Below are positions 456-31,400 of a stretch of 64,000 bases of DNA, piece after piece. The position numbers and the translations under genes are program-made. Source of the DNA: Squalus acanthias (taxonomy: Eukaryota); assembly GCA_030390025.1 (NCBI GenBank), contig CM059432.1, positions 97,962,001 to 98,026,000 on the forward strand, in the 5' to 3' direction. Below the pieces are notes generated by a model. The model saw only the letters and a list, made by a program, of their open reading frames with translations, was not told where the DNA came from and did not search any database. How positions within the stretch are numbered: position 1 is the first letter of the stretch; every line of letters starts with the position of its first letter.

Positions 456-2167
456 GAGATACAGAATCGTCAAAGCATATATAGATTGAGAACAATGCAT
501 GTGTAACTTACAATTGCAGACAACTGAATTCAATCATCCTGACTGTTTATCTGCCGAGGTGTGATAAGTAGAGGCATAGGGCTGGACTTTCTCAATGGAG
601 ACGAGTTGGAGGCGGGACTGCTGCTTATCATGTCAATGTCCCGCCTCCATCATCGTCTGACCAACCAGAGGGATTTTCCCCTGATTGACCTTGTTAAGCC
701 CGCCCTGCGGGCTCAGCAGGCCAATTAAGGAGGAAGTCACTGACAGAGCACGTCAACGTCTAATGTGCTATCTGTCAAGACTTCTTGAAAGAAGAAATGT
801 CAGCGTTTCACAGCTCTGTGAAGCTGTCAAACACTGACATTCTCTGTAGTTTGATGAGGCCTTGTGTTCAGGACTCATCAAACCTTTCAACTTTGTCAAT
901 TTCAGATGGCTGTTGGTTCGGAGGATCCAACAGCCAGTCTGTGAAATCAACAAGGAAGATGTCGGTCTCCCGATCCAGGGTGGATGAAGGCTGCAGGAAG
1001 AAAACAAGGTAAGTGAACATTTTTAAACACTTATCACTCACCTTACATACTTACCACTCCACACTTGCACCCATCACTCACCTCTACATCTTACTTCCAG
1101 GTGCCTCCAAACCCCGCAGACCTCCTTCACGTCTCCTCCAACCCGACGGGGTTCTCCGAGGTCGGGAAGCCTTCACCTGAGAAGGCAAAATGGCACTAAT
1201 CCTTTTTCCTGCTTGTTAACTACTTGTTAACAGGCAGTTAAAAGGATTTAATGCCTTTCCCGCCTCCAGGAGATGGGACCCGAAGCAGCACATCTTCCCA
1301 CCTCCTGGCAAAGGGGCACAGAGGTGGGATGGGGGCGGGTTTGCCATCCGCCCCCACTTTCTGCTACTTGTAGAATTCGCAATATATCGCGATTTTATTA
1401 ATAAGGAGAAAACACAAAGTTTCGTTCAAACAGCTTTTATTTCAGCAGAATGCTGCCAGGTTGTTCAAAGTGGACACAAGCAGCCTGTAAAATGGCCGCC
1501 GCACCTCGTGACAGAACATTCTAGACTTTTCAACAGGCAGACAAGATGGCGTTCCAATAAACATTTGGGCAAGATCGATTAAGATTCAGCACAGTGAAGA
1601 TAATACACGAGACATTGTGGGTTTGCGGTATACAAATAAATACTGAAATCGGTCTCCCAGGTACGAATGAAAGCTATTGTACCGAGTAATCAAGGGCCCA
1701 TCCAAAAGACATTAATATGTAAAATCCCAACGACTCTACGATGAGAGAGCCGTTAGCAGGTAGTTATACAAAACACTTGGAAGCCCCAAAACCCCTCCAG
1801 GGAGAACACCGACCGATTTAACAATGGGAGAAATATTAACAGGTACTCAGACATTTACGAGTAGCCCCGAAACCCATTAAGAACGGAGATCACCCATACA
1901 AGACATTTGAGCGCCAGACCCTAACAAAAGAAAGGACATTAAGGTTGGGCGGGAAACGGAAGATTTTGTACTATAATTACAAGCTCCAAACCGTCCATCT
2001 TTCTCTTATTCGCTTATCCTCGTGGCTGCTCCTGTGTACTCGTAGTCGGGCTCCTGCTTGCCTGGTGCCTCTTTGAAAAGGACTGTCGAACTTTCTGATC
2101 CGTTCAGATCTACCTCGTGTCGCGTAACGAAGACCTATGTTGGTAACTGGCAGCGGAACCAAAGGCC

Positions 2168-2201
2168 CGAGATGAGATGAGATGAGATGAGATGAGATGA
2201 G
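2168..2201 (+). repeat. (GAGAT)n microsatellite within the LTR (copy at 11556-11589)
   Basis: About 6-7 tandem GAGAT units, identical in both LTRs. Confidence 0.9.
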
Positions 2202-2665
2202 AAGAGAGGAAGACCATACTCATCGCCACGGTCAGTAAATCCCGACCGCGCCTGTAGGTCGAATAGCCAAGTTTTCCTTGCCAGGGAGACTTCTTCGAAC
2301 TTGCAAGAACGGTTCATCATCGATGATATTGACTAATCTGTGAACTGTGCTCGAAAGTACCTGTTAAACCAACCAACACAGGTCTTCATCACAGCAGACA
2401 GTCCAGCCTGCTAGCCGGAGCAGAAGCAAGTAAACAAGTGGGACCAGGAGATCTCCTGACCGACACGTGGGTGCTGCGGTGAAAAACATCCGATCAGCTA
2501 TTCGGAATTTCTCCGAGTTATCACGAGTGGTGAGCATGAGTCTCGAAATCCTACGAATCTAGTTAGGATAGATATTGATAGGGGAGGGTTTAAGTATTAA
2601 GGATACTTGTAATGTGTGCCCCTATTTACGGTGTGTCGTTCGTTCCTCGTTTCCCTAGGATCAGC

Positions 2666-2747
2666 TATATAACTGCTTGTAAGATTGTACTGTCATTAAT
2701 CTGTGCTTATGACATGTATTTCATAATCTTAAATATCATGCAATAAA
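2666..2747 (+). promoter_or_regulatory. Putative LTR TATA box (TATATAA 2666-2672) and polyA signal (AATAAA 2742-2747)
   Basis: Motif order and spacing fit U3-R-U5. The motifs recur at +9388 in the 3' LTR. Confidence 0.5.
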
Positions 2748-2991
2748 GATTTTCCATTTCGTACCATTCAACCGAGTCTACATGAGTTTCATCTCCATTA
2801 CTGCTCTCGCATCTAAGTCCAGTGTCTAGAACCGTAAGGGCGAGTGATTCGAACCACTCACAGGTGTGTCTAGTGTTCCCAGGCTGGCTGGAGACCAGAA
2901 CAGGCAACAAGGCCTAGACCCGCACTGACATACAGGCTGCACAGAGCCGCGTGAATCTCACAGGCTGCGAGACACGCAGGGTCAGAATCCC

Positions 2992-3184
2992 AGATTCCAA
3001 GGATAAAAATCCCGCGGTCCGAGCCCAGGCGCCTGTCCCGGCTAGGGAAGCTAATGCACCCACCCCTCCCGACGACATCGAAGTAGTGTTAGGAGCCATG
3101 CGCAATCTCTTGAGTGCACGTGGACAGGTGGCGGTCGCAACCGGCCCCGTAGGTGCCGCAGGACCGTCTAATAGTACCCCATGA
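2992..3184 (+). pseudogene. gag: C-terminal remnant of gag, ending TGA-CTAG in frame with pol
   Basis: A Pro/Ala-rich ORF tail joined directly to the truncated LTR. It is in the same frame as pol and has no in-frame start ATG upstream. Confidence 0.65.
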
Positions 3185-6100
3185 CTAGAACCCGCGCAGC
3201 CCGTCTACCTGTGTCCGCTTAGCTATGATGCGTGGAAGCGACCTTTGGTGGAGATGGAGGTAGAGAAACAGAGGGGTAGTTATTTGTTGGACACGGGAGC
3301 TTCTTGCACCATAATCCATACAGATAGCCCTTTTGACTCGCCGCTATCCACCAGGGTCCCATTCACGTTAGCGGGGTTCACAGGAAAAGAACAGGCTGGC
3401 ACGTTCTCCCTTCCGCTATCCATTCGTTTAGGAGCACTTCACCTTAAGTGGAAGTGTATACTGATGGAATGGCAGGAGGGGGGTGGAAGAGGTATTCTCG
3501 GGTCTGATCTTCTATCGGGACACGGGATCCTCGTGGACCTCAGAAATCACTGTCTCTGGGGGGCTAAGGGTGAAAAAGGCGAGGTAATAGTGATTCCGGG
3601 GGAGGAAGAAACAGGGGTCCTGTGTACCGTACAGCCATCCGGAGGCTACGACCTCAGGCTTATGGTCGCAGATGTCCCAACGGACATGCAAGCGTACGTG
3701 TCAGATAATATGCACGCGTTTGCAACCCACAAGCACGATTGTGGGAGGGTTGTCGGGTTTGAGGTCAGCGTAGATGGGGACCCCATGACCCGACCCCAAA
3801 AGCAGTATAACTTCCCCAAAGAAGCAGAACCCGATATGGAGACAGCAATGTCCTCCTTGGTGCAGCAGGGCGTGTTGAGGCCGATAGCCACACACGTGAA
3901 CTCCCCATTATGGCCGGTTAGGAAGCCGGATAATTCGTGGAGAGCCACGGTGGACTACAGAGTCCTTAACAGTAACATTCCCGCCTGCGCGCCCACGGTA
4001 GCAGCAGTTGCTGACCTAATAGGGAGCATCCCAGCGTCCGCGACCACGTTCACGGTGCTGGATATCTCGAACGGTTTTTGGTCCATCCCGCTGCGGCGAG
4101 AGGACCAGTACAAGTTTGCCTTTACTTTCAAAGGACAACAGTACACATGGAACTGTCTGCCACAGGGTTTCCACAATAGCCCCAGTATTTTCCATCAGTG
4201 TATGGCAGGAAGTTTAAAGGAGTTTAGTCAGCCCAATCAGATAGTGCAGTATGTGGATGATTTGCTCCTATTTACGGACTCAAGGGAGGAGCATGGACCA
4301 CTACTGGACGAGTTATTGGAGCTGCTAGCGAGAAAGGGTTTTAAAATAAATCCTAAGAAAGCACGTATCGGTCAGCGGGAAGTAAAATTCCTGGGACTGA
4401 CCATACGCGCTGGGGAAAGAGCCATAGACAAAGCAAGGAGGGAGTCGGTGCAAGAATTACCGATTCCCAACAACGTAAGGGGTGTGAGGTCCTTCTTGGG
4501 ACTGACCGGTTACTGCAGGGATTTTATCGAAGATTATGCGGCCACAGCAGCGCCGCTCCTCCGACTCCTCCATAAGGGGGTGGAGTGGTCTTGGGACGAG
4601 GGCTGCCAAGCAGCCTTCGAGAAGTTAAAAAGGGATCTGCAGACCCCGCCAGCCTTAGGGGCCATAGATGGGGGGAAGGAGTTTTTCCTGGAGGTAGCTG
4701 CCAGCGGAGACAGCTTAAGCGCCGTACTGCTCCAAGAGCGTCACGGCAAGCTGAGGCCGGTTGTCTATTCTTCCAGGGTGTTAACGGATGTGGAGAGAAG
4801 TTTCTCCAATTGCGAAAGGCACCTTTTAGCCACGCATTGGGCTGTGAAAAGATCAGCAATCTTCACAGGGCTCTCTCCCATCACTCTCCTCACACATCAC
4901 ACACCAACTAAGATGCTTCTGGATGGGAGGATCAAAGATGGGACCGTAAGCAGCGCGCGCATTGCGCGTTGGACCCTTCTTCTCTCCCAGTTGGATCTTA
5001 GAGTAAAAGGTCTTTGCGAGCCCAGGCTTGCGGCCAATTTGGTATACCCCGGTACAGCCCACCGGTGTTCGGTGGAAGGGGTGTGGGACGTCAACATAGG
5101 TTTACGGGCCGGGATACATCCCACTGGGCGCGAGATTTATGTTGACGGGTCTAGCACAGTATCTGCTGGCGAGCGACTCACAGGGTGTGGAGTTTATGAC
5201 CCTGCGGCAGACCTTGCCCTGGCGATCAAGCTCCCTAGCACCATGAGCGCGCAGCAGGCTGAGCTGTCTGCCGTGGTGTACGTTGTGACCCACCCAGACA
5301 TTTTCCCAACCCCATACACGATTTGCTCGGACAGTATGTTCACCTGCAATTCGTGTACGGAATACCTGGCCATTTGGTCCCGCCGTGGATACACCTCCGC
5401 GGACGGGCGACCTTTAACGGTGAAGCCCTTGCTGGAAAAGATCTTAGCAGCAGCAGTAGGGGAGGAAGGAGAGATTTTCATCCATAAGGTGAAAGCTCAC
5501 TCCTCCACAGAGCCCCGTGGGGAGGGCAACCAGCAGGCGGATGCGCTAGCCAGGGAAGGTGCCCGCAACGGCATTTTCTGGGACCCCTATGGGACCAGAC
5601 CCATAGCAGCGATCCGAGGCAGGGACGGGAATCCCGGGAACACCAGGGTAGCATTGCCCCTAGACCTTAAGACCGTCCAAGCCCAGGATCCCGCCCTAAA
5701 AGCAGTCCTAAAAACCATTGCTGAGGGGAGGCAGGTAGAAGGTCCGTACAGTACGGCAACCCTCTCAGTTAAGGAAGGCATGCTGTTCCGCGAGGAGCAG
5801 TGGGTTGTGCCGCAGCAGCACAGGAGGGAATTCCTCCAGTTGGCTCACGAGGGACCAGGGGCAGGGCACCCCGGGCCCGAGGTTACCTGGCAACGGGTAG
5901 AGCAAGCGGGATGGTGGCCAGGGCTCAGGGAACAGGTCCGAGAGTTCTGTGCAAACTGTCTTGTGTGCGCTGCAAACAACCCAGACCCCCAGAAAAGGAA
6001 GGTGCCCATGGGACACGTAAGAAGGGTAGAGGGACCATGGCAGTCGATACAGATCGACTATATAGGACCCCTGCCCACAACCCAGGGAGGCTATAAATAC

Positions 6101-7666
6101 TGCCTCGTCTTGGTGGATGTGTTTTCCAAGTGGGTGGAAGCCTTCCCCTGTCGAACAGCTACGGCACTGGGTACAGCAAAAATCTTGGTTCGGGAAGTGT
6201 TCTCGCGGTGGGGACTTCCCCGTTTTGTGGAGTCAGACCAAGGGAGTCATTTCACCGGCCAGGTGATGCAGAACACCCTCATGCTTTTGGGCATTGAAGG
6301 GAAGTGGCACGTAGCACACAATCCCCAGTCATCCGGGATTGTTGAACGCATGAACCGGACCCTGAAGGAGAAATTGAGGAAAGAGACTAGGAACTCGCCC
6401 CAAAAATGGGCGGAAGTTCTGCCTTTAGTCCTCATGGGGGTCCGGGCCAGTCAGTCAAAAAGTACGGGGTACTCCCCGCACGAGGTGATGACTTGGAGGC
6501 TCATGCGAACCCCCACCCATGTGCTAGCGCCGGTGCTCACTGAGGGTCAGCTCCAAGAGATAAGCAGGGACAAGTTCGCCCAGACTCTCTTGGAGCGCCT
6601 GAAGCAGGTTTATGAGCAGACGGCTGGGAACATGGGAAGGCAGCATCAGGGCAATCGCTTGTTGCTGGAACCCCGCAAAACGCGGGAGTGGGAAGTAGGA
6701 GACCAGGTCATGGTCAGAAACTACGCCAGAGTAGGGAGTCTGGAACCACTGTATATGGGACCCTACAACATTGTAGACAAGGCGAGTCCCATGGTTTACG
6801 CCGTAAAAGTACCTCGGCGCACTAAGTGGTTCCACATAAACCAATGCAAACTGTACAAGCCAGGTGCGCAAGAGAAAACTACAGGGGTAAATCACGCCAG
6901 TGGGAAAGCACAGCCCCAGGTAGGACCACAAGGCACACAGGCAGGCATAGCAGCTTGCATCAGGGGAGGGGACATCCTGGAAGATCATGCAGCGTTTTTC
7001 TGGAATTGGGAGTTAGATGAGGGAGAATTCAGGGAACTCGAGTCAGATGAGGATAGTGATGACGACGGGTGGTTTTGGAGGAACGGTCCCGTTTTCGATA
7101 TGGGGAGAATGCGGGCTGCAGATAGAGATCCACACAGGGTGGACACACAAGCTGCAGGTCCCGAAGACAGGAGGGAGGAGCTAGGGGAGGCGGGGCCAGC
7201 CGCTATGGGAGCACGGAGAGTGACGGTGCGGACCCCAGAGACAGAGCCGCCCGCTTTGAACGTCCCGTCCTCGGGGGAGGCAGAGATCACGAGTGAAGGG
7301 CCGCCTGCTGGGCCGAGCAGGGCGGAGCCACAAACTGCGAGCCCCGAGGTTAGGGAGGCGGAGTCAGCGGAGGCGGAGCCAGCGACTGTGGTGGAACCCC
7401 AAGTCGTCCCGATGGAAGTCTCGGAACCCGGTCCGTCAGTCACGGAACCCCCACCCATGGCAACTCCCCGTAGGTCAAGTAGAGAACCCCAGCCCAGGAG
7501 GATGTGGTCATGTCCCCAGACTGCCCCAAGGCGTAAACTTAAGGTTAAGGTAACCCAGATACAGGCCGGCCACATCGCAGCAGCAACAGGCTGCGGCAGA
7601 TCAGAGGGAAGGGTCAGTGCCCTCCCACCGTCGGGAAGAGCTCGCAGCAGCCTTCTCAGAATTTAA
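3185..7666 (+). CDS. pol: Pol polyprotein: aspartic protease, RT, tether, RNase H, integrase and a long C-terminal extension
   Basis: LLDTGAS (D at 3290); LPQGF and YVDD (4250-4261); degenerate RNase H LEVAAS/CERHLLA/THH; second RNase H YVDGS..SAQQAEL..SDS..KVKAH..GNQQAD; HHCC zinc finger; IDYIGP/SDQG/GIVER DDE; GPY motif. The frame is open from 3185. Confidence 0.95.
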   Translation, partial: LEPAQPVYLCPLSYDAWKRPLVEMEVEKQRGSYLLDTGASCTIIHTDSPFDSPLSTRVPFTLAGFTGKEQAGTFSLPLSIRLGALHLKWKCILMEWQEGGGRGILGSDLLSGHGILVDLRNHCLWGAKGEKGEVIVIPGEEETGVLCTVQPSGGYDLRLMVADVPTDMQAYVSDNMHAFATHKHDCGRVVGFEVSVDGDPMTRPQKQYNFPKEAEPDMETAMSSLVQQGVLRPIATHVNSPLWPVRKPDNSWRATVDYRVLNSNIPACAPTVAAVADLIGSIPASATTFTVLDISNGFWSIPLRREDQYKFAFTFKGQQYTWNCLPQGFHNSPSIFHQCMAGSLKEFSQPNQIVQYVDDLLLFTDSREEHGPLLDELLELLARKGFKINPKKARIGQREVKFLGLTIRAGERAIDKARRESVQELPIPNNVRGVRSFLGLTGYCRDFIEDYAATAAPLLRLLHKGVEWSWDEGCQAAFEKLKRDLQTPPALGAIDGGKEFFLEVAASGDSLSAVLLQERHGKLRPVVYSSRVLTDVERSFSNCERHLLATHWAVKRSAIFTGLSPITLLTHHTPTKMLLDGRIKDGTVSSARIARWTLLLSQLDLRVKGLCEPRLAANLVYPGTAHRCSVEGVWDVNIGLRAGIHPTGREIYVDGSSTVSAGERLTGCGVYDPAADLALAIKLPSTMSAQQAELSAVVYVVTHPDIFPTPYTICSDSMFTCNSCTEYLAIWSRRGYTSADGRPLTVKPLLEKILAAAVGEEGEIFIHKVKAHSSTEPRGEGNQQADALAREGARNGIFWDPYGTRPIAAIRGRDGNPGNTRVALPLDLKTVQAQDPALKAVLKTIAEGRQVEGPYSTATLSVKEGMLFREEQWVVPQQHRREFLQLAHEGPGAGHPGPEVTWQRVEQAGWWPGLREQVREFCANCLVCAANNPDPQKRKVPMGHVRRVEGPWQSIQIDYIGPLPTTQGGYKYCLVLVDVFSKWVEAFPCRTATALGTAKILVREVFSRWGLPRFVESDQGSHFTGQVMQNTLMLLGIEGKWHVAHNPQSSGIVERMNRTLKEKLRKETRNSPQKWAEVLPLVLMGVRASQSKSTGYSPHEVMTWRLMRTPTHVLAPVLTEGQLQEISRDKFAQTLLERLKQVYEQTAGNMGRQHQGNRLLLEPRKTREWEVGDQVMVRNYARVGSLEPLYMGPYNIVDKASPMVYAVKVPRRTKWFHINQCKLYKPGAQEKTTGVNHASGKAQPQVGPQGTQAGIAACIRGGDILEDHAAFFWNWELDEGEFRELESDEDSDDDGWFWRNGPVFDMGRMRAADRDPHRVDTQAAGPEDRREELGEAGPAAMGARRVTVRTPETEPPALNVPSSGEAEITSEGPPAGPSRAEPQTASPEVREAESAEAEPATVVEPQVVPMEVSEPGPSVTEPPPMATPRRSSREPQPRRMWSCPQTAPRRKLKVKVTQIQAGHIAAATGCGRSEGRVSALPPSGRARSSLLRI

Positions 7667-7920
7667 AGGGGCCGCCCTGAGAACGGGCGGCACTGTAAAG
7701 TTATAAGTTAAGTCTTAAGTTCATAGTTCAAGGTTAAGTTTATAGTTTTTTTAATAAGGTTAAGATTGTAGTGTTTTTAACAGAAAACGATAAAATGATG
7801 GGAGTTTTAAAATTAGGTTTAGTTAAAGTTTATACAGCGAACGTGGAAGTTTACGTGAGGCGAGGTCAGGGGACCCGCTCACCCTTCACAGAAGCCAGAG
7901 ACTCTTGCGAGGCTGGCTAC

Positions 7921-7940
7921 CTCATTCTATCTGATCACAG
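7921..7940 (+). promoter_or_regulatory. Putative env splice acceptor
   Basis: ctcattctatCTGATcaCAG|G, 13 nt upstream of the signal-peptide ATG at 7954. Confidence 0.45.
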
Positions 7941-7953
7941 GAACCAAGGAAGG

Positions 7954-10305
7954 ATGGAACGAATTCTAGTATTGCTCGCGGCAATCGGATGTGGATTGGC
8001 CTATCGAGGCCGCACCAAGGATGTCGTGGTGTTTAGATGTTCCGGGGACACGGCCCCCATCGCGGTGGATGGGACCGGAAGACGGGAGGCAGAGGAGACC
8101 AGCACCTATTTCCACAAGGGAAGGTGGCCAGGATGGCTGGGAACGAACTCAACGGAGTATTCTAGCACATCGGGGTTTGCCTACAAAGAGACTTCTTTAA
8201 TGTGCCCCAAAGTAAGGATCATCGCACCCAGGATCAGCGTCACCGTCGGCAAACGGATTTGTTTGACTTGTAGTGGGAATGTCCCATTGAGCCGATGGTG
8301 GTGGCTGCGAAAGCTGAGCAAAACTATGAGGAACTCTTCGGTCGAGTGGGAACGACTGGGTAATAATACCCATCGGACAATTACGGGGACAAACGGACAA
8401 GTGAAAGTCTGTTGGGACAAATGGTGGGAACCGGACGAGGGAATTTATGTATGTATGTGGGGGTCAAAGTACGTTTGCCCCAAAGGCATCTCCATATTTT
8501 TCATTAATCAATGGCAGGATAACGGACAGGGGATGAGGTGGGATGCGAGCACCAGGGGGTGCGGAGCCCCATTCTCCCCGATCCCAGTAAATGCCACTGA
8601 GCTCATTACGCGCCCACGCAAAGCCCCGCCCACGATTCCGGTGGTTCTAGCTGAGGAAGAAGGGTGCCCTAAAACTAGTAAGGGACCCGGGAATGGTTTG
8701 GTACTGGTCCCCACAGACCAGATACTATTTCAGGGGGTACATTACGCGGTGGCCTCGGTGATTTTAAATCTCACTGAGGTGCGGTTACCAGAGTGGTGCC
8801 CCAAAAAGACGGAACAGTTGTATCAGGTCCTGTTGACCAAGATGTTCAGACAATTTTACGAATTCGATTTCGCGGAAATTGATAAAACAAGTTTGTACAC
8901 CGCACCACAGGAAGTTTTGGATCAAGTAGGGAGGCAAAGAAGGGGTTTGGTGAACGATGCGTTCACTGCTTTTAACACGGGTACATCTGTGGTTAACGCT
9001 CTAGACAGTGTGGAGCTGCAGACCCAGATTAATGGTTTAAAGACACAATTAAAAGACATTCTAACAGATGAGAATAAAGTGGTAGGGTCAGGTTTACACG
9101 AGGACCAAGCCATGACTCTCCATTTAAAGGAAATTATAGCAGAGTTGGAGAAACTTGCAAAGACGGTAAATGCCCTGATTAGGGAAGATCGGAATGCATC
9201 CGATCAAGCTGCGCAGAACGAGGTGTGCGTGCTTTACGGGGCGTGGTTACTGGGCGAGGGCCGCAGTAATTTGGAGGATTTAAAACAAGGTTTGGTCCCG
9301 TCCTGGATAAGTAACAAACACCTGCGGGCGCTCCACCCTTTTCAAAACGCATTAAGTCCGTGCCAGCTCAGGCTAGCTTCAGAAGCTTACCCAGTCCCCG
9401 TGGACTGCGGACGATCAAACCATACTATTATGGGAATAGTATTACGCATGCCGGTTTTGGGCGACACAGCAAAGCCCGCCCCGGTGTATCGGGTAGAGAA
9501 CATTGGTGTCATTCGGGGGGGAGCCCACATTCGTTATGCAGCGGTTCCACCTTACGTCATCCGCTGGGAGCAAACGATGACAGGTACAGATCTCTCTGGT
9601 TGTCGTGGCAGGGGAGCACACATAATACTGTGCCCCCAGCACTTGAATGCCTTTTTAACACCACAATGCGGGTTCAGAACGACTGGCGCCAAGTCCATGA
9701 ATTGCACCATGGAGGCAATGGCACAAGATCATGTGCCTCCGCAGGTAGCATACATCGGGGGTGGAACATATTGTGTTACCACTGCAGCGCAACACTACCA
9801 GCATGGAAACCGTAGCCGGTGTCCGGTGAGTAACAGCAGTTTCTGTTTTAAACCCAGGGCGGAAGTTCAAGTAGCATAACAGCGAATTATCCCAATCCCT
9901 GAACCATCCACTGTTCATCTCACAGTAAAAGAGAATTTCACCGACTTGCAACGATTCGTCGCGCATTTCGGATACCTCATTCCCCCTCTCCCTGAACACC
10001 TCACCAAACTTTTAAAAGCCGTCGCGGTGTCACAGAAACATTTTTACACATTAGAGCAGAAAACTGTCGAAATAGGAACAGACATTCTGGATATAGTAGT
10101 TCCACCGTGGTGGAATCTGTTCACCAATATTGAAGTGCCTTCATGGATCAGAATAGCCTCCCACATTTTAGTCGTATGTCAAGTGTTTATTGTAGTGTAC
10201 CTATTGGTCGTACATTGTAAAAGAGACAAACGCCTCACCAAGCATGAAAACACGGGAGAGTGGCGAGAACGTTACGTGCGCGTGCACGATGAAAGCACCG
10301 TGTAA
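7954..10305 (+). CDS. env: Envelope/class I fusion glycoprotein (~783 codons) with one in-frame TAA at 9877-9879
   Basis: Signal peptide MERILVLLAAIGCGLA; Ig-like motif; RQRR furin site (8932-8943) followed by a fusion-peptide-like stretch and heptad repeat; Cys-rich region; N-glycosylation sequons. ORF 9946-10305 is in the same frame and supplies the TM helix (IASHILVVCQVFIVVYLLVV) and tail. Confidence 0.88.
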
Positions 10306-10747
10306 TCGGAAAATGGCGTCATTCCCGCTCGCCACGTGCGCCGCGGAAATTTGTACTCGATCATGATTTTCAAAGATTGTAAATACGTTTGGGAACTCGA
10401 CATGTGTTAAGAGTTGGTGTTGATTATTTTGGTGATGGTGTTACAGTTAAAAATGATTGTTTGGTTTTGGGTTTTGTTTTCCTTTCCCTGAATAAAAGAT
10501 GAATATACAGGTGATACGAGAGGCATCGGCCTGGTTACGCCGGGAAGGAAAACAAGTGGTGTAAGTTTAAGGGCAAATAATGCCTACGGTGATATAAAAT
10601 GTAATTTTCTTGGGAAATAAGGACGACACAGAGACCCTAGCTAGGTTAAAATTAATGGGATTAATTTGCTGGATTCGGAGAGAAATCGAGATAATATTGC
10701 TCACCACTATGATTTTTGATACGATAAGCGGAGTTATTCGCATCAAC

Positions 10748-10756
10748 AGGAGGGAC
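10748..10756 (+). other. Polypurine tract
   Basis: AGGAGGGAC immediately before the TG of the 3' LTR. Confidence 0.75.
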
Positions 10757-12384
10757 TGTAGAATTCGCAATATATCGCGATTTTATTAATAAGGAGAAAA
10801 CACAAAGTTTCGTTCAAACAGCTTTTATTTCAGCAGAATGCTGCCAGGTTGTTCAAAGTGGACACAAGCAGCCTGTAAAATGGCCGCCGCACCTCGTGAC
10901 AGAACATTCTAGACTTTTCAACAGGCAGACAAGATGGCGTTCCAATAAACATTTGGGCAAGATCGATTAAGATTCAGCACAGTGAAGATAATACACGAGA
11001 CATTGTGGGTTTGCGGTATACAAATAAATACTGAAATCGGTCTCCCAGGTACGAATGAAAGCTATTGTACCGAGTAATCAAGGGCCCATCCAAAAGACAT
11101 TAATATGTAAAATCCCAACGACTCTACGATGAGAGAGCCGTTAGCAGGTAGTTATACAAAACACTTGGAAGCCCCAAAACCCCTCCAGGGAGAACACCGA
11201 CCGATTTAACAATGGGAGAAATATTAACAGGTACTCAGACATTTACGAGTAGCCCCGAAACCCATTAAGAACGGAGATCACCCATACAAGACATTTGAGC
11301 GCCAGACCCTAACAAAAGAAAGGACATTAAGGTTGGGCGGGAAACGGAAGATTTTGTACTATAATTACAAGCTCCAAACCGTCCATCTTTCTCTTATTCG
11401 CTTATCCTCGTGGCTGCTCCTGTGTACTCGTAGTCGGGCTCCTGCTTGCCTGGTGCCTCTTTGAAAAGGACTGTCGAACTTTCTGATCCGTTCAGATCTA
11501 CCTCGTGTCGCGTAACGAAGACCTATGTTGGTAACTGGCAGCGGAACCAAAGGCCCGAGATGAGATGAGATGAGATGAGATGAGATGAGAAGAGAGGAAG
11601 ACCATACTCATCGCCACGGTCAGTAAATCCCGACCGCGCCTGTAGGTCGAATAGCCAAGTTTTCCTTGCCAGGGAGACTTCTTCGAACTTGCAAGAACGG
11701 TTCATCATCGATGATATTGACTAATCTGTGAACTGTGCTCGAAAGTACCTGTTAAACCAACCAACACAGGTCTTCATCACAGCAGACGGTCCAGCCTGCT
11801 AGCCGGAGCAGAAGCAAGTAAACAAGTGGGACCAGGAGATCTCCTGACCGACACGTGGGTGCTGCGGTGAAAAACATCCGATCAGCTATTCGGAATTTCT
11901 CCGAGTTATCACGAGTGGTGAGCATGAGTCTCGAAATCCTACGAATCTAGTTAGGATAGATATTGATAGGGGAGGGTTTAAGTATTAAGGATACTTGTAA
12001 TGTGTGCCCCTATTTACGGTGTGTCGTTCGTTCCTCGTTTCCCTAGGATCAGCTATATAACTGCTTGTAAGATTGTACTGTCATTAATCTGTGCTTATGA
12101 CATGTATTTCATAATCTTAAATATCATGCAATAAAGATTTTCCATTTCGTACCATTCAACCGAGTCTACATGAGTTTCATCTCCATTACTGCTCTCGCAT
12201 CTAAGTCCAGTGTCTAGAACCGTAAGGGCGAGTGATTCGAACCACTCACAGGTGTGTCTAGTGTTCCCAGGCTGGCTGGAGACCAGAACAGGCAACAAGG
12301 CCTAGACCCGCACTGACATACAGGCTGCACAGAGCCGCGTGAATCTCACAGGCTGCGAGACACGCAGGGTCAGAATCCCTTACA
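10757..12384 (+). repeat. Complete 3' LTR (1628 bp)
   Basis: TGTAG...TTACA, followed by TSD TACT. Confidence 0.95.
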
Positions 12385-12446
12385 TACTTTACCGGCAGTC
12401 CCACCTCCATGCCCGCCTCCTCGGGGCTGAGAAAATCCAGTCCTCA

Positions 12447-22409: not shown

Positions 22410-25400
22410 TGTGATAGCTTGGGACACAGCATATATATACAACTGCACAACATGGCTTCCGGTAAGAACTGTACTGCCCATGTGCATTATTATTATATAC
22501 ATCAGTAGTCACCAGGTGGCTCTATTACACTTCCCCCTCCTTATTGAAGAAGTTAATCATAGCAAATAATCATTGTACATGACTTGCATGGTATACACAA
22601 TTCTTGGTATACATTTCTCAAATGGAACCCATTTTATGTTTCCAAATTCTACTATAGAATTCTGTAACACAAACAAAAGATATAAACTTATTTCCCATAT
22701 TTACAAATTAAACATAACCACTGGTTTTCTGTTTTGAAGAGGATACCTTCTTTCTTGAACAGAACTTTCAGATCTTGTTGTAGGACTTTGGCTCATTCTA
22801 GGCTGAGCCTGAGGAGAATTTTTCTCCAAGGGCTGACCTTGATCTACATTTGGACTCTTTACACTTTCAGACTGTTTGTCTGCCTGACTTGGGCTCAGAC
22901 TTAAATTCTGACTTTGTCTTGGATTTGTTTCTGGTACGTCTGATGTAGGATTTGCTTCTGGTTCTCTACTTGTAACAAGACTATCGGACTCATCAGAATA
23001 AATGGAATCATCCCAGCTTTCAACTCCTTCCACATCTGTAGGTAAGATATGATCAATGTGAACAAACCTAACCTTTCCATGATCAAACATCTTGACCAAA
23101 TATATGCGAGGGCCACATATCTTCACTACTCTTCCTAGTAACCACTTTAACCATTTATGGTGATGGTTCTTCACTCTAACCTTCTGGTTCAACGTCACAC
23201 TTCTCTCTCTAACTCTGCCTTTATCATGACTCTCTTTCTGCTTTGATTGTTTCTCTTCTACGAACTGTGCAAAGTTTGGCTTTAACAACGAGAACCTGGT
23301 TTGTGGCTGTCGTTTGAGAAACAACTCTGCTGGTTTCCTACCAGTAGTGGTATGAAGAGTATTCCGATAGGTAATCAGAAAATTTGCCAGTTTGTGGTCC
23401 AATGACAACTGACGTTTCTTTGGATTTGGATCCAACATTTGCTTGATGAGGGCACGTTTGACAATTTGTACTGTGCGCTCTGCTGCACCATTTCAAGCAG
23501 GGTGGTGCTGTGGAACCTTGGTATGTTTCACACTGTTTCTGCTCATGAACTGTGTGAACTCTTCTGAACAAAATTGCGGCCCATTATCAGACACAATTTC
23601 TTCTGAGAGGCCGTATGGAGAAAACAATCTTCACAAATTGTCTAGTGTTTTGCTTGTTGTTATTATCCGCATCGGAAACACCTCTACCCACTTCGAGTGA
23701 CTATCTATCACTATGAACAATTGCTGTCCTTCTAGCTCAACAAAATCTACATATAACCTTTGCCACACTCTGGGAGGCCATTTCCATGGCTGTAATGGTA
23801 CTGATGGTGGTTTCTTGCTCACCGATTGACATGTTGTACACTGACTGACTATGTACTCTATCTCTTTATCTGAACCTGGCCATCATAAGTAACTGCGTAC
23901 AAAACTCTTGGTCAAGCACATTCCCAGGTGCTGGTCATGAAGATCTCCTTACAATTTAGACCTGAACCTATCTGGGATAACCACTCTTCCTCCCCACATG
24001 ATACAATCTTTATCCACTGACAATTCATTCCTATGAACGAAGTATGGATGGATATCTTGCTCTGATACCTGGTTTGGCCATCCATTTGCTATGTAATCAT
24101 ACACCTTTGACATGATTGGGTCATGTTTGGTTGCCCTACCAATCTCTTCAGTTGTGACTGGCAGCTCATCAATGTATGAGCAATAGAACACTTCTTCCTT
24201 ATTGGGTGTAACTTGTGATGGGGATGGCAATCTGGACATAGCATCAGCATTACTGTGATCAGCTGATCAGCTGTACTCAATGTCATACATATACGCTGAG
24301 AAAATCAAAGCCCATCTCTGCATTTGGGCTGCAGCTAAGGTTGGAACTGGGGACTTTTGATAGAGGATTGCTGTCAGGGGCTTATGGTCTGTAACTGAGG
24401 TAAACTTACGACCAAACAAGTATTTGTGAAACTTCTTGACCCCAAAAATCAATGACAAAGTTTCCCTTTCGATCTGCGCATAATTCCGCTCACTGGCACT
24501 GAGAGTGTGTGAAGCAAAAGCAATTGGTCTCTCCTCCCCACTATCTAGTACATGAGAGATCACTGCCCCATCTCCGTACGGACACGCTAGCTTGATCTCC
24601 TTAGATACATCATGGTGAACTAACATGGTAGTCTCCACTAATTGGCTTTTACACTCTTTGAATGCTGTGTCGCAATCTTTTGACCACTTCCAAGGGACCT
24701 GTTTTCTCACCAGCTCATTCAGTGGCTGTAACAATGTAGCCAAGTTTGGAAGGAACTTTCTGTAATAATTCAAAAGACCCAAAAATGATCGAAGTTCAGA
24801 GACATTCTTGGGAATGGGTGCATTTCTGATTGCATCCAGCTTTCCCTTGGTTGGATGTAAACCAACTTTGTCTACTCTGTGCACTAAGTACTCCACTGAG
24901 ATTTGAAACAACTCACACTTGTGAGCTGTCACTCATACTCCGTTCTTCTCTAGCAGTTTGAGCACTTCATTCAACACCTCATCATAGATTTGCCTGTTTG
25001 GTGCTGAAATGAGTATGTCATCCAAATAACACACTACCCCTTCAATCCCTTGCAAAATTTGTTCATCACCCCCTGGAATATGTCGGGGGTGGAAGACACT
25101 CCAAATGGAAGCCTATTGAACTGATATAGGCCTAGGTGAGTATTTATAGTCAAGCATGACTTGGACTCTTCATCTAACTCAAGTTGTAGGTAGGCGTTTG
25201 TTAGGTCTAACTTCGAAAAGATCTGGCCACCTGTCAGTGTTGTGAAGAAATCTTCTACATTTGGCAATGTATTGGATAGATTACACTCTAGAACCTGGTT
25301 TACGGTTACCTTATAATCACTACACAACCTTACCTTACCATCTGACTTAGGTACAACAACAATGGGTGTAGCCCAATTACTCAGATCTACCTTAGAGAAA

Positions 25401-28400
25401 ATGTTCTCAGTTTCTAGTCTTTTGAGTTCTTGCTCAACTTTCTCCTTGAGTGCATATGGTATGGGACATGGCTTGTAGTAAACTGGTCTTGCGTCCTTCT
25501 GCACTCTGACACTCGCCTTGAAGACTTGGATCGGACTGCCTGTTTTGCTGAACACCTTCGGATACTGCTTGATGACATCATCTTCCGATGCAAATTTCGC
25601 TTCCACACGAAAAATCGCATTCAGTGGGATCGCTTCAGTGATCCCAACCAATTTTTACCTATCAAGGCAGGCTTGTCTCCTGCCACTACTATGAGAGGCA
25701 AGCTCTGACATTGATCCTTGTAATTCACTGGCATGGTGACACTTCCTACTACAGGGATTTGCTCTCCTGAGTAGCCTCGCAGCTCCACCTTTGATTTCTC
25801 TAGTCGATAATCACGCAACTTGTCGCGATATAGTGATTCTGGTAATACGCTCATGGATGCACCAGTGTCAATTTCAATGGGTATCCTGGTTCCTGCGACA
25901 TCTACTTGGATGACAATAACTTGCGAATTGCTGTTAGATACCTTCGTGCTCCTGATGACGTGAATCTCCAGAAACTCCTCGTCCTGCTGCTGCTCTGCAA
26001 CGGTATATAGTGTCTGGGGATTTCTATCTTCGAGCATTGCTAGTCGGTTTACTCTTCTGTGGGCACGCTTTTGCAAGATGCCCAGTTTTCTTGCAGTTGA
26101 AACACTCTGCCTTCACATATGGACAGCTTTGAGCAATGTGTTGTCCCAGGCACCGATAGCACGACTTCAATGTACTGTTACCATGACCAGTTGCTGAGAC
26201 CTTGGGGCCCAACTGCCTTTTACATTTAGCCTGCAGCTGATTCACTTTGTTTGTCTGATGACTGGAAATGGCGCGAACCTCTTGGTTGGCCATATCCATC
26301 GACATAACTGTCTGACAAGCTAAGTCAAAAGTCAAGTTAGGGGTTGTCAACAATTTACTTCTATTACGTTCATTTTTCAATCCACAAACAAAGTGGTCAT
26401 GCAAAGCTTAGTCCTGAAAGTTTCCGAAATGACAGTGAATGGATAGCTTTTTTAAAGCTGCAATGCACTCACTGATACCCTCGTCATTTAATTGATCGCG
26501 TTGTGGCGGATCGCCACCTAAACGGGCGCATTCCACTTTTCCGTCCGTGGACAATAAATCGGCACCTTGCCTTTAAGGCGCATGCTGCCTTTAAGGCATG
26601 AAAAAAGGAGTGGGCGTCGCCCTCAGTGTGAACTTAAAAAGAGCGGGCGTCGCCCTCAACCAGTAGGGTTTTGCAGAGAGAAGTTGCAGCAGCCATTTTT
26701 GCAAAGGAGTATGTAATTAAAAGCCATGTGCTCCACATATTGACTCGGCCTCAATTCGTGTTTCGCGGCAGCCACAACATTGGTGACCTCGACGCTCAGA
26801 ACGTATTCCGAGCACTGCGATGGCGGACACGAACGCAGTTTCCGTGAAACTGCCGGAGTTTTGGGAAAACCAGCCCGAAGCCTGGTTCCTCCAAGCCAAG
26901 TCCTGATTCCGGCTGCGACACATCACCACAGATGGGACAAAGTATGACTACCTCGTCACATCACTCGGTAGCTCCACAGTTACGAAGGTCTGGACAGCGC
27001 TGCAGAACCCACCAGAGGAGGGCAAGTATGCACATCTTAAGGCCGCGCTCCTTAAAAAATTTACGGCCTCGACATACCAGCGAAACTGCCACCTCCTCGA
27101 CCTTCCAGGCCTCGGTGATGCCTCACCGTCAGATCTCCTCTCCCACATGCTCTCCCTCACCGACGAGAGCCCACCCGGATCGCTCTTCCGCACGCTGTTC
27201 ATCCGCCAGCTCCCTCTCAGCATCCGCCCAGCGATCGTGGCGTCCGGCCTCACGGACCTGGAACCCCTGGCCGATGAGGCCGACAAGCTGCTGTCCGCTC
27301 ACTCCAGCCGCGACGTCACTCCGGACCTGGCAGCCACTGCCTGGGCGCGCCCCTCACCGGCCACCACGCGGCCACAAGGCCCAGCCACCGGGCTCACGGG
27401 GCCTTCGCGCCCCACTAACCCGGGCCACTGTTACGACCATACACGGTTCGGCGCCAGGGCACAACAGTGCACATCTCCCTGCTCTTTCAAGTCCGCCCCC
27501 GTACCAGCCCTTGCGATGGCCGTGGGCCACGCGGGCTCCCTGCTGTACGTCACGGATGACAAAACCGGCCGCCGGTTCCTGTGCGACACTGGAGCTCAGC
27601 ACAGCATCATCCCGGCCTCTGCCCTCGACATCCAAAAGGGCAAACGAGGACCGGCGCTGACTGCTGCTAATGGCTCGGACATCCCGACGTACGGCACCCG
27701 CACAGTCACCCTCGACCTCGCTGGTCGCCGCTACCGATGGGAGTTCATCACTGCCAAGGTGCTCTCCCCTCTCATCGGCGCAGATTTCCTGTGCGCCCAT
27801 GGCCTACTGGTAGACATCCCTCGACACCGCCTCGTGGACATGAACACCATGTCCCCCATCCTGGGTGCCATGGCCCTCCGTCAACCCGCCGACATGGCGT
27901 CACAGTGCCACGCCCGGGCCATGGATGACTACTCGGCACACCTGGCCGAATTCCCAGCCCTTACTAATCCGACCTTCTCCGCGGAGGCGGCCAAACACGG
28001 GGTGGAACACTTCATCCCCACCAGAGGCCCCCCAGTGTACGCCCACGCCCGCAGGCTGGACCCGGCCAAACTGGAGATCGCGCGGACCAAGTTTGCCACC
28101 ATGGAACAGCTCGGCATCATCCGCCGCTTCAACAGTCCCTGGGCCTCCCCACTCCACATCGCCCCCAAACCAGGCGGGGGTTGGCGCCCCTGCGGGGATT
28201 ACCGCCGCCTCAACGACGTCACCACCCCTGATCGGTACCCCGTGCCACACATCCAGGACTTCTCGGCTAGACTGGCCGGCTGCTCAGTCTTTTCCAAGGT
28301 CGACCTGGTGCGCGGCTACCACCAAGTCCCCGTCCACCCTGCGGACGTCCCCAAGACGGCCGTAATCACCCCCTTCGGCCTTTTCGAGTTCCTGCGGATG

Positions 28401-31400
28401 CCCTTCGGCCACAAAAACGCAGCCCAGGCATTCCAACGGCTCATGGACTCGGTCCTTCGGGACCTGAAGTTCCTGTTTGTCTACCTGGACGACATCCTGG
28501 TAGCCAGTTCCTCCAAGCAGGAACACCTCGAACACCTTCGCATCCTGTTCGGGCGCCTCAGCGACCACGGGCTCATCCTCAGCCCAGCCAAATGCCAGTT
28601 CGGCCTGGACAAGATCGACTTCCTCAGCCACCACATCACCCATGCTGGGGCCATTCCCCTGCCCACCAAGGTGTAGGCCATCCAACAATTTCCCCGCCCC
28701 ACCACCATCAAAGGCCTCCAGGAGTTCCTCAGGATGGTGAATTTCTATAACCGCTTCATTCCCAAAGCGGCGTCCCTCATGAGGCCCCTGTATGAAGCCC
28801 TCCGGGGCAGGAGCGGCAAGATGGCGGTCGAATGGACGGCAGACCCTTCAGCCGCCTTCGATTCCACCAAGACCGCGCTCGCCAATGCCACCCTGCTCGT
28901 GCACCCACGGCCCAATGCCAGGGTAGCGCTCACCACGGACCACTCCGACCACGCGGTCGGCGCCGTGTATGAACAGTGGGTCGATGGCGCCTGGCAGCCA
29001 CTTGCCTTCTTCAGCCGCCAACTACGCCCCCTGGAGGTCAAGTACAGCACCTTCGACCGCGAGCTCCTCGTGCTGTTCCTGGCGGTCCGCCATTTTCGGT
29101 GTTTGCTGGAGGGCCACCCCTTCACTGCGTTTGTCGACCACAAACCCCTGACATTCGCAATGGCAAAGACAACCGACCCCTGGTCCGCCAGGCAGCAGCG
29201 CCAGCTCGCGGCAGTGTCCGAGTTCACTACGGACATCCAACACGTCTCCGGCCGAGACAATGTAGTAGCCGACTGCCTCTCCCGCCCCGCCATCCACGCC
29301 GCACACCTGGCAGTCGACTACGCTCAACTCGCAGCAGACCAGATCACCGACCCTGATCTGCTCTCCGCACCTACCAACCTACCAGGGCTACGCCTGGCCG
29401 ACGTCGCCTGTGGCGCGACCGCAGTCACGGTCAAGTGCGACATATCCCTATGTCAACCTCGGCCCGTCGTCCCAGCGTCCTGGCGCCGCCGGGTATTCGA
29501 GATTCTCCACAACCTCTCCCACCCCTGGCGCCCGCGCATCCATCAAATTGGTAGCCAACCGCTTTGTCTGGCGCGGCCTTCGCAAGGATGTGCGTACTTG
29601 GGCCAACTCCTGCCTAGCCTGCCAACGGGCAAAGGTGCAGGAACACACGAAAGCACCCCTCGAGGAGTTTACCGTCCCCTCGCGGAGATTCGACCACATC
29701 CACGTGGACATCGTCGGGCCCCTGCTGCCGTCGCAAGGCCACACGCACTTGCTGACCATCGTTGACCGCACCACACGCTGGCCTGAGGCAATTCCACTGA
29801 CCTCTACCACCACCGCCGACATCGCCAGAGCCTTCGTCAGCACCTGGGTCGCACGGTTCGGCGTCCCCCCGACATGACGTCGGACAGAGGTCCGCAATTT
29901 ACCTCTGAACTCTGGACCGCCGTTGCACGCAATCTCGGGGTGACCATTCACCGCACCACAGCGTACCACCCCCAAGCCAACGGACTGTGTGAGCGGTTCC
30001 ACAGATCCTTGAAGGCATCTCTTCGAGCCAGCCTCCAGGACGGCGCCTGGACCGACCGACTTCCGTGGGTCCTCCTCGGCCTGCGCATCGCGGTTAAAGA
30101 AGACCCCCACACATCAGCAGCAGAGCTTGTGTACGGTCAGCCGCTGCGCGTACCCGGCGAGTTCCTGCCCACCGCCACGACACCCTGGTCAGCCGACCAG
30201 CAACGCCACGACTTCGCCTCACTGGCGCTACAGTTCGCCCCGGTGCCCATTGCCCGACACGGCGAATCCACCTCACACATCCCACTAAGCCTGCACCAGG
30301 CATGGTTCATTTTCGTCCGGCATGATGCCCACCGCGGACCCCTTCAACCCCCGTATGACGGGCCCTACAAGGTGCTACAGGCTGGGGACAAATTTTTCAC
30401 CCTGCAAGTGGGCGACAGGACCGAAAAAGTGTCGGTTGACCGACTCAAGCCAGCACACTCGGAGCCAGGTGAGCAGGTCCCTGTAGCTCGTCCATCACCA
30501 CGCGGCCGACCTGCCCTCAACCCAGTTCACCCGGCTGCTCCAGGCCCGGCCGTTGCACGTCCAGCGGCGTCCTACAAGAGTCGCTCCGGCCGGCCCATCA
30601 GACCGCCGCACCGTCTCGTCCACACCTCCTATGCGGATTCTGGGGGGAGCTGTGTGGCGGATCGCCACCTAAACGGGCGCAATCCACTTTTCCGTCCGTG
30701 GACAATAAATCGGGCACCTTGCCTTGAAGGCGCATGCTGCCTTTAAGGCATGTAAAAAGAAGTGGGCGTCGCCCTCAGTGTGAACTTAAAAAGAGCGGGC
30801 GTCGCCCTCAACCAGTAGGGTTTTGCAGAGAGAAGTTGTAGCAGCCATTTTTGCCAAGGAGTATGTAATTAAAAGCCATGTGCTCCACATATTGACTCGG
30901 CCTCAATTCGTGCTTCGCAGCAGCCACAACAGCGTATTCCAAAACGATAACTTTCAGCAATTTCCAGGGGCTCAGGGCTATAGTGCTGTAGAATCTCCGT
31001 CAGTGGCATGTCCTTTGGGTTTGGCGTGAACAAGCAAATTTTTCAGGCTTTCATACACCTTTGACTGCCTGCTTCAGTCAAAAAAATAGCCCGTTTCCTT
31101 TCTAAAACCGCCCGGTTACAATCTAAATCATCGGGGACTTCAACAATACTATTCACAGTGAAAAACATTTCTAGCCGCTCCACATATGCTCTGAAAGTCT
31201 CTCAGTCACGATGGAACTCACCCAAGCACCCTATTATTCCCATAGGCGCAGCCATCTGGACTCTGGCAACGTCGACAGTTCAACCACGTGTACTCGAAAT
31301 TACCTCGGATTTTTAAGTTTTTTATGCAAAGCGAAGAACATCTAACAGTCCCTCCATCGGTTGACAGGATTATCCTCCAACAAAAATTTCAGCTAGGGAA

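Follow-up and report, generated by a model that had tools for sequence, protein, structure and literature searches.

The locus raises the question of how a retrovirus-like lineage, in which gag and pol lie in one frame with a single TGA between them, makes its Gag-Pol polyprotein. We analysed a 64,000-nt stretch of Squalus acanthias DNA (the window), which holds a provirus of 11,016 nt (1369-12384) bounded by a 4-bp target-site duplication (TSD). The LTR-gag-pol-env-LTR layout, the protease-RT-tether-RNase H-integrase order and the TSD match a Retroviridae-like provirus, with gag and the primer site inferred from other copies. Its features are:

1365..1368, + strand: left copy of the TSD, TACT (right copy at 12385-12388)
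1369..2991, + strand: 5′ LTR without its final 5 nt, with 1 mismatch to the 3′ LTR over 1,623 nt
2992..2992, + strand: deletion junction; this copy has lost the end of the LTR, the primer binding site, the leader and the bulk of gag
2993..3181, + strand: gag remnant, the final 63 codons, a tail that follows the zinc knuckle and has a predicted amphipathic stretch (helix by eye)
3182..3184, + strand: gag stop TGA, the proposed readthrough codon
3185..3188, + strand: CTAG 3′ context, Beier-Grimm type II (UGA-CUA-G) as classified in the available text of PMC13517186
3185..3193, + strand: unpaired spacer of 9 nt ahead of the predicted rod
3194..3400, + strand: predicted extended stem-loop (the rod), candidate readthrough stimulator, 78 bp (66 Watson-Crick), -92.2 kcal/mol
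3192..3235, + strand: 7-bp stem of the initial annotation, unsupported and replaced by the rod
3185..7666, + strand: pol frame of 1,493 codons that encodes protease, RT, tether, RNase H, integrase and a long acidic/Pro-rich tail
3254, + strand: first in-frame ATG of pol, codon 24
3290-3292, + strand: protease catalytic Asp, pol codon 36
7738..10305, + strand: env-like frame with a weak Ig-domain match, a basic cleavage-like site, a coiled coil and a C-terminal hydrophobic stretch
9877-9879, + strand: in-frame stop inside the env-like frame
10746..10756, + strand: polypurine tract (PPT)
10757..12384, + strand: 3′ LTR, 1,628 nt, TG...CA

The cleavage site, coiled coil and membrane anchor of the env-like frame were assigned by eye. 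The near-identical LTRs indicate that the insertion is very young. Nevertheless, this copy is a defective deletion derivative, with the primer site gone, gag mostly deleted and env interrupted. It cannot make Gag itself, and any readthrough therefore belongs to the family and not to the copy. What the initial annotation called gag upstream of the stop is indeed a Gag C-terminus, but only as a remnant of 63 codons between the 5′ LTR and the stop. The window by itself would not have identified it, and the assignment relies on other copies and on relatives.

As the initial annotation had described, the TGA (3182-3184) is followed by CTAG (3185-3188) and the in-frame peptide continues into the protease, with 1,493 open codons after the stop. 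Both other frames are closed at the junction. Counting both strands of the window, the heptamer TGACTAG is found at 2 of 2,338 TGA; among the 138 on the plus strand of the provirus it is found once, at the in-frame gag stop. Its presence at that stop is well above chance. UGA-CUA with the downstream ORF in frame is the arrangement of type II (UGA-CUA/CGG) readthrough sites; the UAG-G of type III, the gammaretrovirus type, is absent from the junction. A -1 frameshift was rejected, as the sole slippery-like heptamer lies at 3328, beyond the catalytic Asp, and none is found ahead of the protease core.

The peptide that follows the stop belongs to the protease before any start codon is reached. 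Residues 16-45 past the stop align with residues 5-34 of HIV-1 protease, with WKRPLV identical, so that Met24, encoded by the first ATG, lies inside the protease fold. Further upstream, 3 of the 13 rows tested, namely P0004, P0009 and P0017, gave alignments to residues 9-23 (shuffle p 0.001-0.008); for this pre-ATG segment, no significant alignment was obtained with SnRV or 9 other rows of the 13. Searches for a full-length Gag returned 0 of 278 candidates with the 63-aa remnant, just 2 weak matches, to a short Ala/Pro-rich stretch, with the remnant plus the protease start, and 0 of 1,333 with the N-terminus of P0004.

The family is present in 20 of the 24 listed runs, which represent 9 studies and six organisms. 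Variants were surveyed over 2860-3860 of the window in 4 of these 24 runs (organisms A-D), and TGA was the majority allele in all 4. None of the 40 variants listed, out of 135, falls at 3182-3188. Meanwhile, position 3180, in the codon preceding the stop, varies in all 4 runs, the coverage there lying 23-35 nt from contig ends, and changes private to the window appear as variants of near-100% frequency (3077, 3349 and 3692). One contig (record 5 of run X10) spans 3150-3236 with 0 differences to the window. The initial annotation had named a sense codon in other copies as the sign of a private mutation; in the 4 runs, and among the 40 of 135 variants listed, the stop was instead common to the copies. 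Judged by these runs, it is the majority state in the family; minor variants at the stop or in CTAG may occur among the other 95.

Other copies also supply part of what was deleted here. Contigs of runs X6 and X10 extend beyond 2991 and past the LTR end into a primer-site-like start, and those of X6, X9 and X10 have additional open codons upstream of 2993, which look like the last part of a zinc knuckle. In the 10 extra open codons, 4 of 7 residues agree, by eye, with the knuckle end of the relative L003, which would place the knuckle 68 residues ahead of the stop. The corresponding distance is 41-68 residues, by eye, in L080, L001, L003, L004, L090 and L095.

In a separate observation, contigs of X6, X9 and X10, from three organisms, depart from the element at 3216, 32 nt past the stop. 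Within at most 30 nt they reach a purine tract that resembles the PPT of the provirus. These contigs possibly represent a gag-only derivative family devoid of pol, env and the rod.

A metagenome scan yielded DNA relatives at no fewer than 79 loci, and junctions were compared in the best 21 RT relatives. We set aside 55 gypsy-like or fragmentary rows, along with L002, whose junction is that of L003 but whose gag frame is broken, the truncated L094, and L088 and L093, which have indels close to the junction. Of the best 21 RT relatives with DNA, 17 displayed a long zinc-knuckle Gag frame that ends in a single in-frame stop, with the protease Asp 27-41 codons on (60 in L051); the distance in the window is 36 codons. 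The stop of these 17 is TAG in 16 and TGA-AGA in 1, and TGA-CTA was found in none. In the coelacanth gene model P0004, a Gln occupies the stop position. A single-protein search of viral contigs gave no DNA relative, and a genome collection gave 6 loci, 0 of the 3 examined having a stop-to-protease junction.

The relatives displayed other features of their own. L004 is a retrovirus-like element with a 601-codon Gag frame and a 1,180-codon Pol, and the end of its gag (2915-2923) reads TAG-CAATTA, the type I readthrough motif of tobacco mosaic virus. Section 2.1 of PMC13517186 gives this motif as absent from animal viruses. L080, L001, L003 and L004 share G(C/T)GGCC at +7 to +12 past the stop, and in L080 and L004 a stem begins at this motif. 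L130 is a retroviral gag-pol-env contig within a bacterial MAG record, probably a host contamination.

The stop occupies the position of the in-frame gag stop of snakehead retrovirus and of epsilon- and gammaretroviruses, and the protease fold starts before the first ATG; readthrough is hence the best reading. It is also, as far as the sequence tells, the simplest route to a whole protease. The initial annotation had proposed that this lineage makes Gag-Pol by UGA readthrough, and the family data, the stop position and the protease fold support that proposal, although the structural element was misidentified and the copy has no capacity for Gag. We consider that the lineage very probably makes Gag-Pol by readthrough of UGA-CUAG.

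In this scenario, the TGA would be the natural gag terminator of an ERV family whose retrovirus lineage is basal and unclassified. Most ribosomes would terminate at the TGA in intact members and release Gag. Termination would be weakened by the CUAG context, such that perhaps a few percent of ribosomes decode UGA with a near-cognate tRNA and extend in frame into Gag-Pol, from which the protease would be cut out (both the rate and the inserted residue are inferred). The long predicted stem-loop that begins 10 nt downstream probably boosts this process, as is the case for Venezuelan equine encephalitis virus (VEEV) and Sindbis virus. According to the available text of PMC13517186, UGACUAG by itself gives at least ~1.3% readthrough in human genes. 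That of PMC2194720 reports that the gag-UGA-pol junction of Candida Tca2 gave no readthrough in a reporter.

Alternatively, splicing of the kind used by foamy viruses might produce the mRNA for Pol, with 3187-3188 (the AG of CTAG) serving as acceptor and the TGA as an ordinary terminator. TGACTAG does end in YAG, CTAAT lies 16-20 nt upstream, and the best PDB matches are foamy RTs. However, the pyrimidine tract is weak (57% over the last 14 nt), and foamy gag and pol occupy different, overlapping frames (3 of 3 loci checked), whereas one common frame is used here. Moreover, the first AG past the stop falls, by eye, in three different codon phases in this element, in the lokiretroviruses Bsp, Dcl and Lro, and in XtERV-S, and we regard splicing as very improbable. 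There is a very faint chance that Pol is made separately from the ATG at 3254, via reinitiation or an internal promoter. This ATG is in frame, P0001 has a Met at the same place, and a junction promoter is described for Tca2 in the available text of PMC2194720. Judged from the alignment to HIV-1 protease, such a product would nevertheless lack 12 residues at the start of the protease, and the frog Pols have no Met at this position.

The view that the TGA is a nonsense mutation in a formerly fused gag-pol, spread in non-autonomous copies, deserves scarcely any credence. It could draw on the defects of this copy at two other places, on the Gln of P0004 and on two lokiretrovirus consensuses annotated as fused smc-gag-pol. 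Against it, the stop is common to several organisms and lies where 17 relatives have theirs, and the context follows just 2 of 2,338 TGA. A different recoding of the UGA, through selenocysteine insertion or A-to-I editing of the stop within a duplex, would suit the identity of the codon and one 141-nt fold in which the stop is paired. It is barely conceivable, as a scan of 1369-12384 against Rfam at E up to 1 gave neither a SECIS nor any other match beyond 2 chance snoRNA matches, and the spacer past the stop is unpaired in the dominant fold.

Downstream of the UGA, the initial annotation had proposed a 7-bp stem, and its arms CCGCGCA (3192-3198) and TGCGTGG (3229-3235) can indeed pair (6 Watson-Crick pairs and 1 GU), but this is at chance level: 28% of control positions in pol could likewise form a helix of at least 7 pairs that starts 4-12 nt downstream. 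The pair probability of the stem was 0.0 in 7 of 8 folding windows and high solely in a 51-nt window cut around it. It was rejected as a structural element; a much longer rod places both arms of the stem on its own 5′ side. By a folding method that does not predict pseudoknots, 3194-3400 is predicted to form one unbranched rod of 207 nt that begins 10 nt past the stop (z -5.85, 0 of 200 shuffles). This rod is the longest unbranched one among 431 provirus windows, has a mean pair probability of 0.91 in a 1-kb context and ranks 2nd by z among 108 windows. The first 100 nt of the region alone are unremarkable (z -0.15). The ungapped inverted-repeat finder misses the rod because it is bulged, and Rfam gave only 2 chance matches over the junction.

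Nine listed variants lie on the 3′ arm of the rod, of which 5 keep the pair, 3 are unpaired and 1 breaks it (P 0.16-0.28), and no two-sided change occurs among the listed variants (40 of 135). One diverged loose end of 30 nt, compared with the rod apex in a by-eye tally, gave 5 unpaired, 3 kept and 2 broken positions, which is at background level. In 9 relatives folded at 220 nt, the sequence past the stop gave nothing comparable to the rod (z -2.7 to +1.1). Based on the folding model, we lean slightly towards the rod being a functional readthrough stimulator. Five other pol windows (3585-5200) also fold at z -4.4 to -5.8 against dinucleotide shuffles, and pol is unusually structured.

Gag-pol readthrough is already known in retroviruses, as is the use of UGA in aquatic ones. 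The initial annotation had set the UGA against retroviruses that use UAG; this holds for gamma- and epsilonretroviruses but was too strong, as UGA is recorded for several aquatic retroviruses and ERVs. The available text of PMC13517186 lists UAG for gammaretroviruses, epsilonretroviruses and SnRV, UGAAGA in SSSV, UGACGA in ZFERV, UGAAGU in a frog ERV, and UGACUA in alphaviruses and a triatovirus. In XtERV-S the TGA is described as subject to suppression (PMC8278194, in its available part), and copies S2 and S3 read TGA-CAG in the published supplement. Additional file 5 contains a bullfrog class III provirus related to XtERV-S; its gag end is TGA-CTAG, and a shift of one base occurs deeper in its protease, by eye. 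SSSV, ZFERV, the frog ERV, XtERV-S and its bullfrog relative thus likewise have UGA at the gag end, and the bullfrog copy has the identical seven bases. The sources on these viruses and ERVs, in the parts available, neither comment on the CUA(G) context nor describe a stimulatory structure. This element, with a TSD of 4 bp and a probable zinc knuckle, differs from XtERV-S, which is ERV-L-like, with a 5-bp TSD and a class I TM.

The element resembles MoMLV, WDSV and snakehead retrovirus, in which one in-frame stop divides a zinc-knuckle Gag from the protease at an equal distance to the catalytic Asp. In contrast, they use UAG (UAG-G of type III, with a compact pseudoknot in MoMLV) where UGA-CUAG is found here, and in the RT tree the element lies outside the clades of the first two and is not joined to the third. 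The nsP3-nsP4 junction of alphaviruses (UGA-CUA in Sindbis virus, UGA-CGG in VEEV) is of type II like this one, as given in the available text of PMC3159437 and PMC13517186. It also has an in-frame polymerase downstream and an extended stem-loop after a spacer of 8-9 nt (9 nt ahead of the predicted rod here). The differences are that we are dealing with a retrovirus and that the predicted rod is 207 nt long, against 126-177 nt, and paired nearly throughout. The available text of PMC3159437 gives a stimulation by the stem of ~10-14-fold in VEEV, with a spacer of 8-9 nt, and of 3-4-fold in Sindbis virus.

The same context recurs in two other basal lineages, the bullfrog class III provirus and the lokiretroviruses. 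In the part of the PMC7947760 supplement available, each of the 7 lokiretrovirus gag ends that we located has TGA-CTA(G/A), and pol follows in frame by eye: TGA-CTAG in Ofa, Cne, Pyo and Sau, and TGA-CTAA in Bsp, Dcl and Lro. These 7 come from 24 consensuses, and 4 of them were first found via TGACTAG; the 4 under the neutral header 'Gag protein' all read TGA-CTA. Lokiretroviruses also share with this element a dual RNase H and an env with a basic cleavage site. Readthrough is nowhere mentioned in the main text of PMC7947760. Outside retroviruses, the fission-yeast Ty3/gypsy elements Tj1, Tcry1 and Tosmo1-3 have an in-frame TGA-CT(A/G) between gag and pol that is interpreted as readthrough (bioRxiv 2022.12.06.519325, available text), but they are fungal Metaviridae without env and of an unrelated lineage.

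UGA-CUA(G) at a gag end was not found in the available portions of PMC9040795, PMC12440569, PMC5210030, PMC5512871, PMC10435555, PMC8310308, bioRxiv 2024.03.25.586437 and bioRxiv 2021.11.23.469661, and 12 of the 14 supplementary files of PMC10435555 held no match. In a search outside subscription journals, Repbase, bioRxiv supplements and sequence figures, we found no paper that describes UGA-CUAG at a retroviral gag-pol junction. The alphavirus-type context with a predicted extended stem-loop appears to be undescribed for retroviruses.

The phylogenetic placement of the element was addressed with an RT-tether tree of 73 rows, built without ERV-L, ERV4 or lokiretrovirus rows. P0001, which is 91% identical to the element over this region, joins it in a group with the 'NYNRIN-like' Pols of frog and coelacanth and with P0006, P0009 and P0014, with support of just 86/87. 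None of the gamma/epsilon, foamy, class II and gypsy clades includes this group, nor is it joined to SnRV; the order of the deep forks is tentative and long branches meet. The best DNA match, L080 (44%), has an RT that matches the RT labelled SnRV.

Several assignments were rejected. Labelled lokiretrovirus Pols have the RT signature CPFGY.NSPA.FNIFL against LPQGFHNSPSIFHQ here, and a lokiretrovirus-type Env was sought through PF00523 with no match at E up to 10, a weak test. A foamy virus is incompatible with the gag/pol frame arrangement and with an RT outside the foamy clade. ERV3/ERV4 have a 5-bp TSD and a Gag without zinc finger (PMC4299795, Table 1, in the part available), to which the 4-bp TSD and the probable zinc knuckle, inferred from other copies, do not fit. 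On its sequence features, the element is an unclassified basal ERV.

These findings bear on how Gag-Pol expression evolved. One might postulate an overlooked, possibly ancestral Gag-Pol mode at the base of retroviruses, namely alphavirus-type readthrough with UGA-CUA and a long stem-loop 3′ of it. We find this rather doubtful, because TGA-CT(A) arose in fungal elements too and convergence on a leaky context favoured by hosts is likely. If true, the mode would be common to lokiretroviruses (the sister group), the ERV-S relative and this lineage, and the UAG-pseudoknot and frameshift strategies of the textbook genera would be derived. Together with the UAG-CAAUUA of L004, all three Beier-Grimm types would then be found among aquatic retroviruses. 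With the context present in lokiretroviruses too, one can ask concretely which mode of Gag-Pol expression was ancestral. A 2026 review (PMC13517186, available text) has retroviral readthrough measured solely in gammaretroviruses, with UAG and a pseudoknot, and calls the cis-elements of aquatic retroviruses unclear. The family described here is young and multi-copy, and its UGA-CUAG site with a defined candidate stimulator of 207 nt lends itself to a direct test in a small reporter. Readthrough would also explain why such Pols are annotated as stand-alone 'NYNRIN-like' proteins that begin within the protease.

Beyond the junction, the provirus displayed several minor features. Pol runs ~260 residues beyond the integrase SH3 domain (window ~6850-7666) as an acidic, Pro/Glu-rich stretch without a Pfam match. 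The env-like protein has a weak Ig-domain match at 8200-8478 (PF13927, E 0.01, under the cut-off), ahead of its fusion-protein-like half, and an Ig-like stretch also ends the frog gene model P0002, by eye. The single-sequence AlphaFold model of the env-like protein had a pLDDT of 34, and sequence searches of Atlas and PDB gave no matches. Each LTR contains a (GAGAT)n pentamer run (2172-2200 and 11560-11590). The repeats that flank the provirus are, we presume, akin to shark SINE/LINE elements. Elsewhere in the window, there are two further LTR retroelements with pol remnants, at 26502-30931 (LTRs 97% alike) and 23235-25037.
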